Source: Escherichia coli
GTDB lineage: Bacteria; Pseudomonadota; Gammaproteobacteria; Enterobacterales; Enterobacteriaceae
Strand: one strand, 5' to 3'
Length of the DNA: 64,000 nucleotides
Assembly (NCBI RefSeq): GCF_048403405.1
Contig: NZ_CP183129.1
Each line of letters begins with the position of its first letter. The first letter of the stretch is position 1. Below the pieces are notes generated by a model. That model did no database searches. It saw only the letters and a program-made list of their open reading frames with translations, and was not told the DNA's origin. The position numbers and the translations under genes are program-made. Shown here one piece after another: positions 4,200-40,602 of the stretch.

Positions 4200-5567
4200 T
4201 TAATAAAATAGCGTGATTGTGGCAATCATATTCACCACGAAACCGACTGCCATGGGGATCGCTGTCCGCTTCACTACCGCAAAAGGCGAAACGCCTGCAA
4301 TTCCTGACGTAACGACCACCACCGCAGTAATCGGCGAAACAGCGCGCGCTAGCGTCGTGGCAAAATGCATCGGCATAATCATTACAACCGCTGGCACATG
4401 TAGTCCGGCTGCGATATTCGGAATAAGACTGGCAAATGACATAAACGGCGCATTGCCTGAGCCCATCACAATGGCACAAATGGCAATGACCAGCGCCATA
4501 ATAATCATCACGCCAATACCGCCCAGACCAGAATGCTCCGCACCCCTGATAACCGCATCGACAGTGCCAATCGTCGTTAAGCCTTTCGCAAATATTTCAC
4601 CCGCGACCACCAGCGTTACCACGTTGGCAAACTGCGTACCCATGCCGTCAAAAAACGCCTGCACATCATCCATTGTTTCACGCAAGTTATGCTTGCGGAA
4701 GAACTCAACAAACATCGTCACCGTCAAACTCAGTAACATCACCACCACCAGATGCAGTTCTGACTGCATCAGCCCGACGTGGGCAAGGAACAGCGAGCCG
4801 AGCATCAGGATTAACGGCATCACCGGTAAAATGGCGTAATAGAGCGGTGGGACATTATCGAGAGCTTTTTGCTCTGCCTGTTCGTGATTGATATTTTTAT
4901 CTTTTTTGTCGAAAGCGCGTTGCACGAAAAAGTGGGAGATCGCCACCGAGATAATGACGCAAGAGGCGACCGGAAGCTGGTAGTGGAAGAAGTAAGTGGC
5001 AATTTTCATTCCTGCGACCTGGGCAGCAAAAATGGAGTTCGTTTCCAGAATCCCCCACTCAATGGACATCGTGGTTGCGATAACCGCCACCGCAGAGAGG
5101 CGACTTACTCCCAGACTCACCAGCGTCGGAAATAAGGTGACCATCAGCAACATACCCAGACCGGAGGCGCTGGTAATAAACTGCGCCATGATTTGGCCGA
5201 TGACGTAAGTTGCCGACAGAATAATATACGGCGAGCGAATGAGTTTTAACGGGCGGCTTAACAAGCTCACCATCGCGCGACTTGCCCCTATGCGCTCCAT
5301 ATAGCGGGCATAACCGCCCACTGCCATAATCGACAGCCCCAATCCGGCAATGCGGTTGGACAGCATGCGCAGGATTTCATTATAAATATCGACGATCAAG
5401 TAGCCGCTGCTTTTGGCGGGATCGAGCACACCACCGAACCCTAACCAGACACCGCACATCATCAGGAAGATACCTGCGACAGCCAGCACCACCTGAGGTT
5501 TGTAGTTTTTCAGGATCAAATAGCCCATCGTAATTAATACGATGACAGATATAATTATGCCGAACAT
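4200..5567 (-). CDS. dcuD: Putative anaerobic C4-dicarboxylate transporter DcuD (DcuC family)
   Basis: Multi-pass membrane protein; internal ATG at 5567 gives 455 aa starting [25 protein letters not shown]; ORF track start at 5585 is 6 codons longer. Confidence 0.9.
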
Positions 5568-5946: not shown

Positions 5947-6738
5947 ATGGGCCTTATGAACGCATTTGATTCGCAAACCGAAGATTCTTCACCTGCAATT
6001 GGTCGCAACTTGCGTAGCCGCCCGCTGGCGCGTAAAAAACTCTCCGAAATGGTGGAAGAAGAGCTGGAACAGATGATCCGCCGTCGTGAATTTGGCGAAG
6101 GTGAACAATTACCGTCTGAACGCGAACTGATGGCGTTCTTTAACGTCGGGCGTCCTTCGGTGCGTGAAGCGCTGGCAGCGTTAAAACGCAAAGGTCTGGT
6201 GCAAATAAACAACGGCGAACGCGCTCGCGTCTCACGTCCTTCTGCGGACACCATCATCGGCGAGCTTTCCGGCATGGCGAAAGATTTCCTTTCTCATCCT
6301 GGCGGGATTGCCCATTTCGAACAATTACGTCTGTTCTTTGAATCCAGCCTGGTGCGCTATGCGGCTGAACACGCCACCGATGAACAAATCGATTTGCTGG
6401 CAAAAGCACTGGAAATCAACAGTCAGTCGCTGGATAACAACGCGGCATTCATTCGCTCAGACGTTGATTTCCACCGCGTTCTGGCGGAGATCCCCGGTAA
6501 CCCAATCTTCATGGCGATCCACGTTGCCCTGCTCGACTGGCTGATCGCCGCACGTCCAACCGTGGCTGATCAGGCTCTGCACGAGCATAACAACGTTAGC
6601 TATCAACAGCATATTGCGATCGTTGACGCGATCCGCCGCCACGATCCCGATGAAGCCGATCGCGCGTTGCAATCGCATCTCAACAGCGTCTCTGCTACCT
6701 GGCACGCCTTCGGTCAGACCACCAACAAAAAGAAATAA
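5947..6738 (+). CDS. nanR: GntR/FadR-family repressor of sialic acid catabolism NanR
   Basis: 263-aa ORF with N-terminal winged HTH (GntR type) and FCD-like C-terminal domain; directly upstream of nanA. Confidence 0.93.
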
Positions 6739-10089: not shown

Positions 10090-11422
<1,333 letters not shown>

Positions 11423-11441
11423 AACTTAGTTCGTTTTAAAG

Positions 11442-11466
11442 ATTCTGCAGACACTGTCTGCAGAAT
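11442..11466. repeat. Perfect 25-bp palindrome centred between the convergent nanQ and yhcG stop codons
   Basis: ATTCTGCAGACA-C-TGTCTGCAGAAT; same core (CAGACA-N-TGTCTG with AATTC-type arms) as the three palindromes inside yhcG. Confidence 0.8.
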
Positions 11467-11481
11467 TCGAAACCGCTGAAA

Positions 11482-12609
11482 TTAACGGCGTCTATAGCCT
11501 TCCTCTAGCACCGCCTGTGTTCGAACGAGTTCATCCGCGAGTCGTTTTTCATCAGGTAGTTGCATCTTATATTCGCTCGCCAGAACGGTGTTAGGCAAAC
11601 CAGCCAGTGCATAATACGCTTCGCCGGCTCCTTTCTCTGCACAGAGAACCAGACCGATGGGCGGATTTTCATCCGGTAGTGTCCAGTGCTCTTTGGCGTA
11701 GTTGAGATACATATTCATCTGTCCGGCATCGCTATAGCTGAATTTGCCCACTTTTAGATCGACGATTAGCAGGCAGCGTAAACGGCGGTGGAAAAACAGC
11801 AGATCGACACGAAACCAGTTGTCATCAATGCGTAACCTTCGCTGTCGACCAACAAAGGCAAAATCATCCCCAAGTTCCAGCATGAAATCCATCAGGTGGT
11901 TGATCAGCGCCTCCTCAAAATCAGATTCTGAGTATTCATCTTTCAACTCCAGAAATTCGAGCACAAAGGGATCGCGTATCGCCTGTTGCGGAAGAATATG
12001 CATCTCGGCAGGAGCGTGTTGTTGCAGCATGGCTGATTTATCATGTGACAGTAGTGTTCGCTCATAAAATTGGGTCGCAATTTGCCGCTCTAGCTGGCGG
12101 ACAGACCAACCACAGCGGAGCGTTTCTTTTTCATAAAAGCTGCGGGCGTCAGCGTTTTTAACGGAAAGTAGACGGACGTAGGTGGACCAGGGCAGGGGGA
12201 AAGATTTGGCAGACAGCGTCTGCCAAATCTTTGCCGATGGGAATTCTGCAGACGGTGTCTGCGGCATTCCCAATGGTGTTAATTCGCCAGACACTGTCTG
12301 GCGAATTTCAACATGTTGAAAAAAGAGGTAAAAAAGCCTCATTTGGCGTAAGTTTTTTGCAGAGAACCCACGCTTATACCTTAGACTTAAATCCTTTGAT
12401 AGTCGCTTGATTAGCTGCGCACCATACGCAGCCCTGGCCTCGCCACCTTGTTCAAATTCGACAATTCGTCGGCCAATTTCCCAGTATGTCGCGGTCATCA
12501 GCGCGTTAACGCTACGTACCGTTTCCGTCCGGGCGCTATCGACCAGGTGAATAATACCGTCGTGGATTTGCTGGTAGCCTGTTGAGGTTCTCTCTGAGAG
12601 CGATTCCAT
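11482..12609 (-). CDS. yhcG: DUF1016 / PD-(D/E)xK nuclease-fold protein YhcG
   Basis: 375-aa ORF; C-terminal region ...FAFVGRQ...RVDLLFFHRRLRCLLIVDLKVGKF...ENPPIGLVLC resembles restriction-endonuclease-like fold of the YhcG family; convergent with nan operon. Confidence 0.85.
   Translation of the reverse strand: MESLSERTSTGYQQIHDGIIHLVDSARTETVRSVNALMTATYWEIGRRIVEFEQGGEARAAYGAQLIKRLSKDLSLRYKRGFSAKNLRQMRLFYLFFQHVEIRQTVSGELTPLGMPQTPSAEFPSAKIWQTLSAKSFPLPWSTYVRLLSVKNADARSFYEKETLRCGWSVRQLERQIATQFYERTLLSHDKSAMLQQHAPAEMHILPQQAIRDPFVLEFLELKDEYSESDFEEALINHLMDFMLELGDDFAFVGRQRRLRIDDNWFRVDLLFFHRRLRCLLIVDLKVGKFSYSDAGQMNMYLNYAKEHWTLPDENPPIGLVLCAEKGAGEAYYALAGLPNTVLASEYKMQLPDEKRLADELVRTQAVLEEGYRRR
12200..12307. 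repeat. Three tandem 39-bp units, each containing a 27-33 bp palindrome, in-frame inside yhcG
   Basis: Palindromes at 12200-12232 (perfect 15-bp arms), about 12241-12269 (imperfect) and 12281-12307 (perfect 13-bp arms); centres spaced exactly 39 bp; encode 13-aa units QTVSGELTPLGMP / QTPSAEFPSAKIW / QTLSAKSFPLPWS on the minus strand. Confidence 0.85.
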
Positions 12610-12792
12610 TATCTGTCCCTTTATATGGCGCTGTGTTGAATAATGGAATCAGCTATACGCCGGGCATCTGCCGGTAACAATCCAGATGTGCGTATTACAT
12701 TGGTTTTCTTCAGATTATGCGAGGCGCTTTCCAGTACGAAAGGAGAATTTCAGCGCCGACTCTTTTCTGAGGAGGCGGCGCTGGGACAGAGC

Positions 12793-14223
<1,431 letters not shown>

Positions 14224-25024: not shown

Positions 25025-25170
25025 ATGCCTCTTAAGGTTTTCTTAAGGTTCTTCTGAAAGTGAAAAGCGCACAAAATGTACAAATGACGTTGATTGAGAA
25101 CGATTTGAGTACGTGATTTTCTTATTGTCGGGGGGAGTTTGAAGGGAGTTGTATGTCAAAGTGATGAAGA

Positions 25171-25443
25171 TTAATCTTCATCAAAACCAGAATTAAAGAG
25201 GGCGATAACGGCGGCCAGTGCTTCCTCTTCCTGTGGACCGGTCGCTTCAACTTCAATCTGCCGTCCTTTGGCAGAATCCAACATCAGCAGCGCAATAACG
25301 CTGTTGGCTTCAGCCTCGGTGCCTTCGTCATTACGTAACAGCACTTCAGCGTCAAAACCCTGCATTAATTCAAACAGCTTCATTGCAGGCCGGGCATGCA
25401 TGCCCAGCTTGTTTGTGATTTCAACAGTTTGCTTGACGGTCAT
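25171..25443 (-). CDS. ptsO: Phosphocarrier protein NPr (nitrogen PTS)
   Basis: 90-aa HPr-like [28 protein letters not shown]... with active-site His; overlaps rapZ stop. Confidence 0.95.
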
Positions 25444-38500: not shown

Positions 38501-38727
38501 CTTTCCTCACTCCTTAAGTTAGTCGCTTTCATTCAGAACATTTCTTCTGTCGGGCATCACTATACTCCTGATGGCGTATTGTTCTAAAAAGTTCCTGTAA
38601 AGAGTGTGAATATTCAGAATATATAAAGATACATACACTGGTTTTTCAGGCGTTATTGCGCTGAATAAGTGTTTTTATGGAACTTATTGGAATCATCCCG
38701 CGCACTGCGCGGGATGAGGGGGAGGGA

Positions 38728-40547: not shown

Positions 40548-40573
40548 GTTTTTCGCGTCCCGGTAACGGATGA

Positions 40574-40602
40574 AAGCCCCGCAACACGTTGCGGGGCTTT
40601 TT
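40574..40602 (+). terminator. Rho-independent terminator after rplU-rpmA
   Basis: aaagccccgcaacacgttgcggggcttttt: GC stem plus T-run. Confidence 0.8.

Follow-up and report, generated by a model that had tools for sequence, protein, structure and literature searches.

We found that the coding sequence of yhcG, a predicted nuclease gene of Escherichia coli, contains a palindrome that is held at the nucleic-acid level in homologous genes across phyla, with covariation between its two arms that alters the encoded peptide. The gene was studied in a 64,000-nucleotide (nt) stretch of E. coli DNA (contig NZ_CP183129.1; the whole stretch is called the window below), and it belongs to the DUF1016/YhcG family. 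The interest of the palindrome lies in its being family-wide: the same position of a protein-coding sequence carries a nucleic-acid constraint in organisms as distant as DPANN archaea and E. coli. Its host family sits in defence islands, on plasmids and on integrative and conjugative elements (ICEs), and for twenty years its function has eluded assignment. In the literature that we searched, none of the publications found tied yhcG or DUF1016 to any palindrome.

A palindrome at one codon position across the YhcG family

The survey covered 80 loci from species-representative genomes, with proteins of 38-65% identity, which were found with a 14-sequence alignment. These loci span Proteobacteria, Acidobacteria, Bacteroidota, Firmicutes, Cyanobacteria, Verrucomicrobia, bacteria of the Candidate Phyla Radiation (CPR), and DPANN archaea. 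Homologous genes were anchored on the conserved motif LSWSHY, and a palindrome was called perfect when its arms were at least 10 nt and its loop at most 5 nt. In the 70 codons before LSWSHY there were 2.6 perfect palindromes per kb, against 0.058 in the rest of the gene and 0.061 in 360 kb of flanking DNA, which is an approximately 45-fold enrichment in these linker codons (74 homologues). We then compared the genes with a null model in which the peptide was fixed and synonymous codons were redrawn according to the codon usage of the same gene. Arms of 10 nt or more were present in 40 of the 74 genes where 0.26 were expected, and arms of at least 12 nt in 33 of 74 genes where 0.07 were expected. 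At least 11 of 13 positions were paired in 59 of 74 genes, against a null mean of 8.4. The symmetry centre fell on the first codon position in 93 of the 101 palindromes.

The consensus reads ATT NNN CAGAC A [C/G] T GTCTG NNN AAT, and closer relatives follow ATT-N3-CAGAC-N1/3-GTCTG-N3-AAT, with the core CAGAC/GTCTG and the outer ATT/AAT conserved at 75-90%. For 77 distinct elements, aligned after filtering for seven perfect inner pairs, 90.5% of cells were paired, against 69% after shuffling and 24-41% when the partner was slid. Double-sided changes numbered 210 against 69 after shuffling, and none of 500 shuffles reached as high. The peptide varies under the retained DNA symmetry and includes QTLS, ETVSR, ESLIR, QSVTG, HALR, HPMG, YTVCK and PQLV. 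In homologues at 27-31% identity the palindrome stands at the same place with other cores, such as CCAAC..GTTGG, CCACAA.TTGTGG (encoding PQLV) and GTGACACC...

Four copies of the palindrome in the window

In the window, the disordered linker of YhcG is encoded by a tandem array of three 39-nt (13-codon) units at 12200-12306 on the minus strand, each unit centred on a palindrome of 25-33 bp. The original prediction had spoken of a repeat expansion in yhcG, and the three units with a period of 39 nt account for it. E. coli alleles have 1 to 3 units; other alleles of this species, like the orthologues of Salmonella and Citrobacter, have a single one. Since K-12 also has three units, this is the common E. 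coli state and not a peculiarity of the window strain. In the AlphaFold2 (AF2) model, residues 101-123 have a predicted local distance difference test (pLDDT) score below 50, as expected of a disordered linker.

Palindrome 1 (12200-12232; the palindromes are given without strand) is perfect, with a 15+3+15 layout, AAAGATTTGGCAGAC AGC GTCTGCCAAATCTTT, and encodes K127-F137 (KIWQTLSAKSF). Palindrome 2 (12242-12268) is imperfect, with two mismatches (one in K-12), and encodes MPQTPSAEF. Palindrome 3 (12281-12307) is again perfect, 13+1+13, AATTCGCCAGACA C TGTCTGGCGAATT, and encodes E101-L110 (EIRQTVSGEL). A fourth copy lies after the yhcG stop codon (11438-11481) and contains a perfect 12+1+12 palindrome at 11442-11466, 15 nt past the stop. 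The core CAGACNNNGTCTG occurs 4 times in the 64 kb, against 0.03 expected, each time at yhcG, and the copies differ by compensatory changes (TGG/CCA, CGC/GCG, CTG/CAG). Read in frame past the TAA, the fourth copy gives FQRFRILQTVSAES, which is similar to FQRIEILQTVSAEF of a second allele family found in E. coli and Pseudocitrobacter. The fourth copy is a fragment of another yhcG copy, now left between the convergent genes nanQ and yhcG.

Because each unit is palindromic, the opposite strand can be read in frame as well: on the plus strand, 12197-12310 is open throughout and gives a near-identical repeat peptide (IWQTASAKS..ILQTVSAAF..IRQTLSGEF). Inversion of 12197-12310 would leave the frame and the motif unchanged. 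Apart from the copies at yhcG, perfect palindromes whose arms measure 11 nt or more occur in the window only at 2653-2678, 25162-25183, 38693-38717 and 40573-40600, of which the first and the last resemble ordinary terminators (a GC-rich stem between A and T runs).

The palindrome is a DNA-level element

As RNA, the E. coli array folds into three hairpins (-63.8 kcal/mol, z -7.9). The variation among palindromes carried no wobble bias for the sense strand, with internal mismatches comprising 7 G·T against 11 A·C (a small sample), and among the outer pairs only 5 of 24 non-Watson-Crick cells were G·U, which is no enrichment. The centres were strand-symmetric. A 1-nt centre was found in 60 of the 101 palindromes, and pairing often ran into the centre; the centre base was C in 23 cases and G in 24, and the 3-nt centres occurred as reverse-complement pairs (GCT 10/AGC 5, ACC 4/GGT 2). 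A scan of 11300-12800 against Rfam 15 stayed at chance level, with a best score of 22 bits against a threshold of 45 and all E-values above 1. None of the four palindromes was called by a terminator scan, no T-run follows any copy, and a promoter scan at yhcG gave no standout internal promoter.

Given the strand symmetry and the lack of a G·U bias, the palindrome acts at the level of DNA and is not a sense-RNA element. The symmetry is as expected of a site in duplex or cruciform form, or of a sequence shaped by hairpin template switching. Between the window and an O157 strain, the downstream copy differs at its very centre, where C is changed to G, in a stretch that is otherwise almost identical. 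From these sequences we infer that this flip at yhcG is the signature of loop inversion by template switching.

A candidate self-site and its alternatives

The reading that we favour, at somewhat less than even confidence, is that the palindrome is a cis-acting DNA self-site recognised by YhcG itself, which would provide promoter-independent self-control, with template switching keeping the arms perfect. The site, as a duplex or as an extruded cruciform or hairpin, would be recognised by the probably dimeric enzyme or by its N-terminal domain. Such recognition would restrain a potentially toxic nuclease at whatever place the gene is inserted, often within foreign operons, without the need for a particular promoter. 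Hairpin template switching would keep the arms perfect, and as a side effect it may produce centre flips, copy-number changes, deletions and replacements. If the palindrome is indeed the enzyme's own site, it would offer a concrete substrate for the first biochemical assays of the YhcG family, and it would explain how a toxic, promoter-less cassette is controlled at any insertion point. A wider claim, which we advance with considerable doubt, is that YhcG/DUF1016 nucleases may carry their own cognate site in frame, as a structure-forming palindrome whose arm triplets co-evolve with the gene and which the enzyme reads to gate or restrain its activity or to tell self from non-self. Such a site would represent a new kind of cis-encoded control element, which lies within codons for a disordered linker and does not depend on the promoter.

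Several points speak against such a self-site. That YhcG binds or cleaves the palindrome is something that we infer purely. The non-contacted N3 positions are complementary too, although a protein-binding site would not need this, and the core sequence differs between subfamilies. About 15 of the 74 homologues, mostly from genomes of 27-40% GC, have no palindrome and an intact gene, so the element is not essential to the protein. No copy was found in the promoter regions of homologues. We also considered and dropped the idea that extra flanking copies are a general rule: in 73 loci the flanking palindromes were unrelated, terminator-like hairpins, and the downstream copy of E. coli is specific to its locus. 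The filter applied to the covariation alignment biases its inner pairs, so that unbiased evidence comes only from the resampling test and from the outer pairs, which lie outside that filter and still alternate between UA, CG, GC and AU. In addition, replacement of yhcG in Salmonella caused no colonisation defect and yhcG is a pseudogene in the DT2 lineage, and the single tested PDC-S02 gene (the candidate defence system to which YhcG belongs), from a cold-seep metagenome, gave no protection against T4, T5 or T7 (bioRxiv 10.1101/2024.09.26.614923).

The palindrome may instead be without function, a self-perpetuating sequence in a peptide-tolerant linker of an otherwise ordinary nuclease gene, an explanation that we regard as the main alternative and hold to be rather less likely than the self-site. 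In E. coli, template switching at quasi-palindromes is an established source of mutations. Intrastrand switching copies mutations from one arm to the other, and the arms would therefore evolve in concert and stay perfect. The strict Watson-Crick pairing fits this well, since it often reaches the very centre, where a hairpin could not pair, as do the equally frequent C and G centres, the inverted pairs of 3-nt centres and the central flip between near-identical strains. The core drifts between subfamilies, the roughly 20% of lineages that lost the palindrome kept the gene, and non-coding remnants and genomes that lack YhcG still have a perfect palindrome. Against this, palindromes are prone to deletion, yet this one has kept its codon position in organisms as far apart as DPANN archaea and Proteobacteria, whose proteins share 27-65% identity. 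The core and the outer triplets are strongly conserved among closer relatives, the rest of the genes and the 360 kb of flanks have no comparable density, and other disordered linkers are not known for such elements. Were the origin purely mutational, yhcG would provide a striking natural palindrome kept perfect by arm-to-arm copying over deep time. An E. coli model for that case is ready, because a typing marker used for O157 strains (described below) reads the copy number of the element.

An RNA element seems improbable to us. In that case hairpins of the yhcG mRNA would govern its translation or stability, or they would serve as a cis-encoded ligand, similar to an antitoxin, that keeps the nuclease inactive as long as transcription continues, following the logic of type III toxin-antitoxin systems. 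The wobble counts given above, both internal and outer, show no sense-strand enrichment, the loops are strand-symmetric, and pairing often extends into what would be the loop. Rfam yielded no match, the repeats lie inside the open reading frame (ORF), and the protein fold is unlike that of ToxN.

We think it quite improbable that the palindrome serves as a recombination joint that diversifies a defence gene by exchange or loss of modules, either between the N-terminal 100 residues and the remainder of yhcG or between the gene and other cassettes. Much of what is described in the section on rearrangements would suit this: the alleles that are identical over nanQ and the C-terminal two-thirds and most divergent at the palindromes, the replacement and the insertion that abut palindrome 1, the remnant past the stop codon, the minimal DUF1016 copies around a toxin cassette beside an integrase, and the same two upstream helix types in E. 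coli, Salmonella and Citrobacter. Hairpin-induced breaks and slippage would, however, be expected to place breakpoints at palindromes passively. The homologues had no dedicated recombinase consistently linked to them (154 families among 100 neighbours), and most homologues have a single palindrome and hence nothing to recombine with.

Finally, a protein-level motif (I-x-Q-T-x-S-x-K/E) that the protein needs, with incidental DNA symmetry, is very improbable and largely refuted, since resampling with fixed peptides gave 0.26 genes against 40, unrelated peptides (ESLIR, HALR, HPMG, PQLV) occur under the retained palindrome and the region is modelled as disordered, even though a QTxS-like peptide is kept in several low-GC homologues with a decayed palindrome and a helix is predicted in the third E. 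coli unit.

Comparison with known palindromic and repeat elements

REP/RAYT, BIME, ERIC and the Rickettsia palindromic elements resemble the yhcG palindrome in being short palindromes tied to a nuclease or transposase gene, and the Rickettsia elements are likewise translated within host proteins. REP- and BIME-like families consist of scattered, mostly intergenic copies, whereas the yhcG palindrome is at one locus; REP-like and Rickettsia elements occur in many genes, and the yhcG palindrome at one homologous codon position of one gene family. Type III toxin-antitoxin systems (ToxIN) share with yhcG the foldable tandem short repeats of variable copy number that are encoded together with a possibly toxic nuclease. 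In ToxIN, however, the repeats lie upstream, behind a terminator, and the protein has the ToxN/AbiQ fold, whereas the yhcG repeats are in frame inside the ORF of a PD-(D/E)xK protein, and the evidence at yhcG favours a constraint on DNA over one on RNA. The yhcG palindromes lack the combination of a GC-rich hairpin and a T-run that defines an intrinsic terminator. The C/G flips at the centre fit the quasi-palindromes that are hot spots of template switching.

Palindromes mark rearrangement breakpoints in E. coli

The palindromes mark the breakpoints of copy-number changes, deletions and replacements in E. coli. The length difference in yhcG is a marker in the typing of E. coli O157:H7 lineages by LSPA-6, a lineage-specific polymorphism assay (PMC3514354), and the O157 alleles are short by exactly 78 bp, i.e. 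two 39-nt units. The typing papers treat the locus as an anonymous indel; in the literature searched, neither the palindrome nor its conservation across phyla was noted. In alleles of the ATCC 8739 type (locus L001, 1544-2015), the stretch from palindrome 1 to nanQ (window ~11423-12203) is swapped for ~470 bp, which replaces the 3' two-thirds of yhcG together with the downstream palindrome. This segment holds a 101-amino-acid ORF, named 'transposase' in RefSeq, that had no match in Pfam or NCBIfam. The segment also has a hairpin of its own, GGCACAGAGC...GCTCTGTGCC. In one strain an IS1 element is inserted at palindrome 1, at the same point as the junction of the ATCC 8739 type. Two allele families are 100% identical in nanQ and in the C-terminal two-thirds of yhcG, and share 22 of 60 positions at the palindromes.

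A further variant is an 'empty' site, found in 947 of 5426 complete E. coli genomes (~17%), in which nanQ and gltD are 67 nt apart and one palindrome takes the place of the gene. In strain 3385 (locus L002, 4044-4110), this site holds one perfect 27-bp palindrome identical to palindrome 3 (window 12281-12307). A single deletion between palindromes did not reproduce this site: the 14 nt between the palindrome and gltD are unlike the sequence that adjoins gltD in the window. In searches with a 37-nt query, the matches per E. coli genome had a median of 3 and a maximum of 6, plasmids gave none, and the listed matches were all at or beside yhcG. The idea of a dispersed repeat was therefore dropped, as neither the window nor E. 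coli genomes have the palindrome outside the yhcG locus. The palindromes at yhcG thus make the nanQ-gltD interval a rearrangement hot spot in E. coli, whether they are functional or purely mutational in origin.

The helix upstream of the linker (residues ~83-100, window ~12310-12363) occurs in two types, NLRQMRxFYLxFQ and NLWQxxxFYxCFQ, and both are present in E. coli, Salmonella and Citrobacter (orthologues P0012, P0042, P0043, P0071, P0075 and P0096). This distribution suggests that an old polymorphism is shared between species, or else that a patch around the palindrome has been exchanged repeatedly.

In viral contigs, 23 of 41 matches to the palindrome pattern were inside DUF1016 genes and 18 outside, 11 of the latter being perfect palindromes. 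Some of the sites outside DUF1016 ORFs are clear DUF1016 remnants (L101, L122, L125). The other sites were considered as phage targets and set aside, as, according to a rough estimate, they may be chance matches of generic hairpins to the 8-nt half-pattern. Contig L122 (IMGVR_UViG_2534681820_000001) contains two 179-nt direct repeats (4686-4864 and 6008-6186) that are degraded miniature DUF1016 genes, made up of palindromes, about 20 codons and then C-terminal codons. The repeats flank a cassette of a Panacea antitoxin and a MazF-like toxin, between a tyrosine integrase and an AAA-ATPase/PDDEXK_9 gene.

Domains and catalytic site of YhcG

The intact yhcG coding sequence (11482-12609, minus strand) starts with ATG and encodes 375 amino acids; it was identified from the ORF list, from 98% identity to E. 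coli YhcG clusters and from the RefSeq annotation, in which the gene is called yhcG and its product 'PDDEXK nuclease domain-containing protein'. A DUF1016_N domain (residues 19-184; 12058-12555, minus strand; Pfam PF17761, E 9e-43) is all-helical and is split by the palindrome-encoded linker, with helices in the AF2 model at 7-96 and 124-197. It is followed by the YhcG_C PD-(D/E)xK nuclease domain (residues 208-360; 11530-11988, minus strand; Pfam E 3e-56). Scores were 146 bits for DUF1016_N (cut-off 32.8) and 190 bits for YhcG_C (cut-off 32.5). Sequence reading and alignments placed the catalytic motif at 11752-11805 (minus strand), with D269 (11803-11805) and D284-L285-K286 (11752-11760). 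Alignments A1 and A2, of homologues sharing 34-79% identity, show D269, L285 and K286 without variation, as well as E228, E245 and Q256, and have either D or E at position 284. These conserved positions mean that the canonical D...(D/E)xK site is intact.

The original prediction had described a DUF1016-type protein with a restriction-endonuclease-like C-terminus, and had proposed a profile hidden Markov model search, a look at the conservation of the putative catalytic D/E/K residues and structure prediction as ways to check it. All three bore it out, the two Pfam domains scoring far above their gathering cut-offs, the residues being conserved as just described, and the fold comparison returning the alpha-beta-beta-beta-alpha-beta core of the PD-(D/E)xK superfamily. 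The motifs quoted there are present in YhcG (...FRVDLLFFHRRLRCLLIVDLKVGK...), and the same check took in the strings ...VDLLFFHRRLRCLLIVDLKVGK.... No NCBIfam model matched YhcG, and in sequence searches of PDB with protein and profile queries no chain matched, the only matches coming from the fold comparison. The PADLOC profile PDLC04807 (PDC-S02) matches residues 8-370 with an E-value of 1.9e-135, as a single-gene system.

YhcG is accordingly a predicted intact, stand-alone endonuclease that combines a helical DUF1016_N domain with a C-terminal PD-(D/E)xK domain similar to those of NucS and Hjc; the DUF91 family is now called NucS. The fold and the catalytic residues of YhcG are established here at the level of prediction and alignment. 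The PD-(D/E)xK assignment, with a link to DUF91, had been predicted by Kosinski et al. in 2005. With both domains, an end-to-end PADLOC match and an intact motif, the protein is a member of the DUF1016/YhcG family (Pfam PF17761 and PF06250; COG4804; PADLOC candidate PDC-S02), of which yhcG is the E. coli founding member and from which it shows no difference at the protein level. The family descriptions and papers searched do not mention a conserved palindrome inside the coding sequence. At the level of the gene, our findings add nothing to existing database knowledge, as the fold prediction, the candidate-defence label and the length polymorphism were already known.

YhcG shares the NucS-type C-terminal nuclease domain with the mismatch endonuclease NucS/EndoMS (PDB 2vld, 5gke). 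NucS has an N-terminal DNA-binding domain, also used for dimerisation, whereas the N-terminal half of YhcG is the unrelated, all-helical DUF1016_N. The fold-search alignments to NucS span only 113-124 residues. Given the all-helical N-terminal half, the short fold alignment and the lack of a sequence match to NucS chains, YhcG is not a member of the NucS family.

Spread and accessory status of the family

The YhcG family, among the most widespread of candidate defence and mobile-element gene families, comprises 24,465 representative clusters at E <= 1e-3 (clusters at 50% identity). Homologues were present on 520 of 72,556 plasmids, 193 of them conjugative, and were rare in isolated phages (17 of 50,697). 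Among 100 proteins flanking 70-odd homologues, the commonest neighbour families were restriction-modification components (ResIII 6, Methylase_S 5, N6_Mtase 4); because 154 families appear among these flanking proteins, there is no obligatory partner. DUF1016 genes were previously reported to be enriched beside Type I restriction-modification and invertible loci (PMC9881135). The family is horizontally mobile, on plasmids and ICEs, and often lies beside restriction-modification genes. In the work of Hu et al. (2009), YhcG belonged to a network with HsdMRS, McrBC and integrases, and deletion of yhcG was reported to be synthetically lethal with hypomorphic dnaB, dnaN and parE.

In E. coli, yhcG is an accessory, dispensable gene. 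At least 80% of the yhcG locus is present in 3348 of the 5426 complete genomes, and further genomes, besides those with the empty site, have truncated or replaced versions. The gltBD-yhcG arrangement is kept in Salmonella and Citrobacter koseri. This conserved order, together with the absences in E. coli, indicates that yhcG is old at this site and was repeatedly lost.

Neighbourhood of yhcG in the window

On one side, nanT-nanE-nanK-nanQ (yhcH) converge with yhcG; on the other, gltB-gltD run in the same direction. The original prediction had placed yhcG directly downstream of gltD and had taken it for a stand-alone protein with no methylase, ATPase or helicase gene beside it. Both statements agree with our results, as the gltD stop lies 183 nt upstream of the yhcG start, co-directionally, none of these three kinds of gene adjoins yhcG among the ORFs of the window, and PADLOC matches a single-gene system.

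In the window, gltD is directly upstream of yhcG across 12610-12792, and similarity to K-12 (locus L088) stops ~30 nt upstream of the yhcG start. This difference is a second indel polymorphism at the yhcG locus. In K-12 MG1655, yhcF is the gene directly upstream of yhcG (gltF-yhcADEF). A stationary-phase noncoding RNA of K-12, G0-10703, has been reported to run divergently from yhcG and to overlap its 5' region by 128 nt (PMC7967276).

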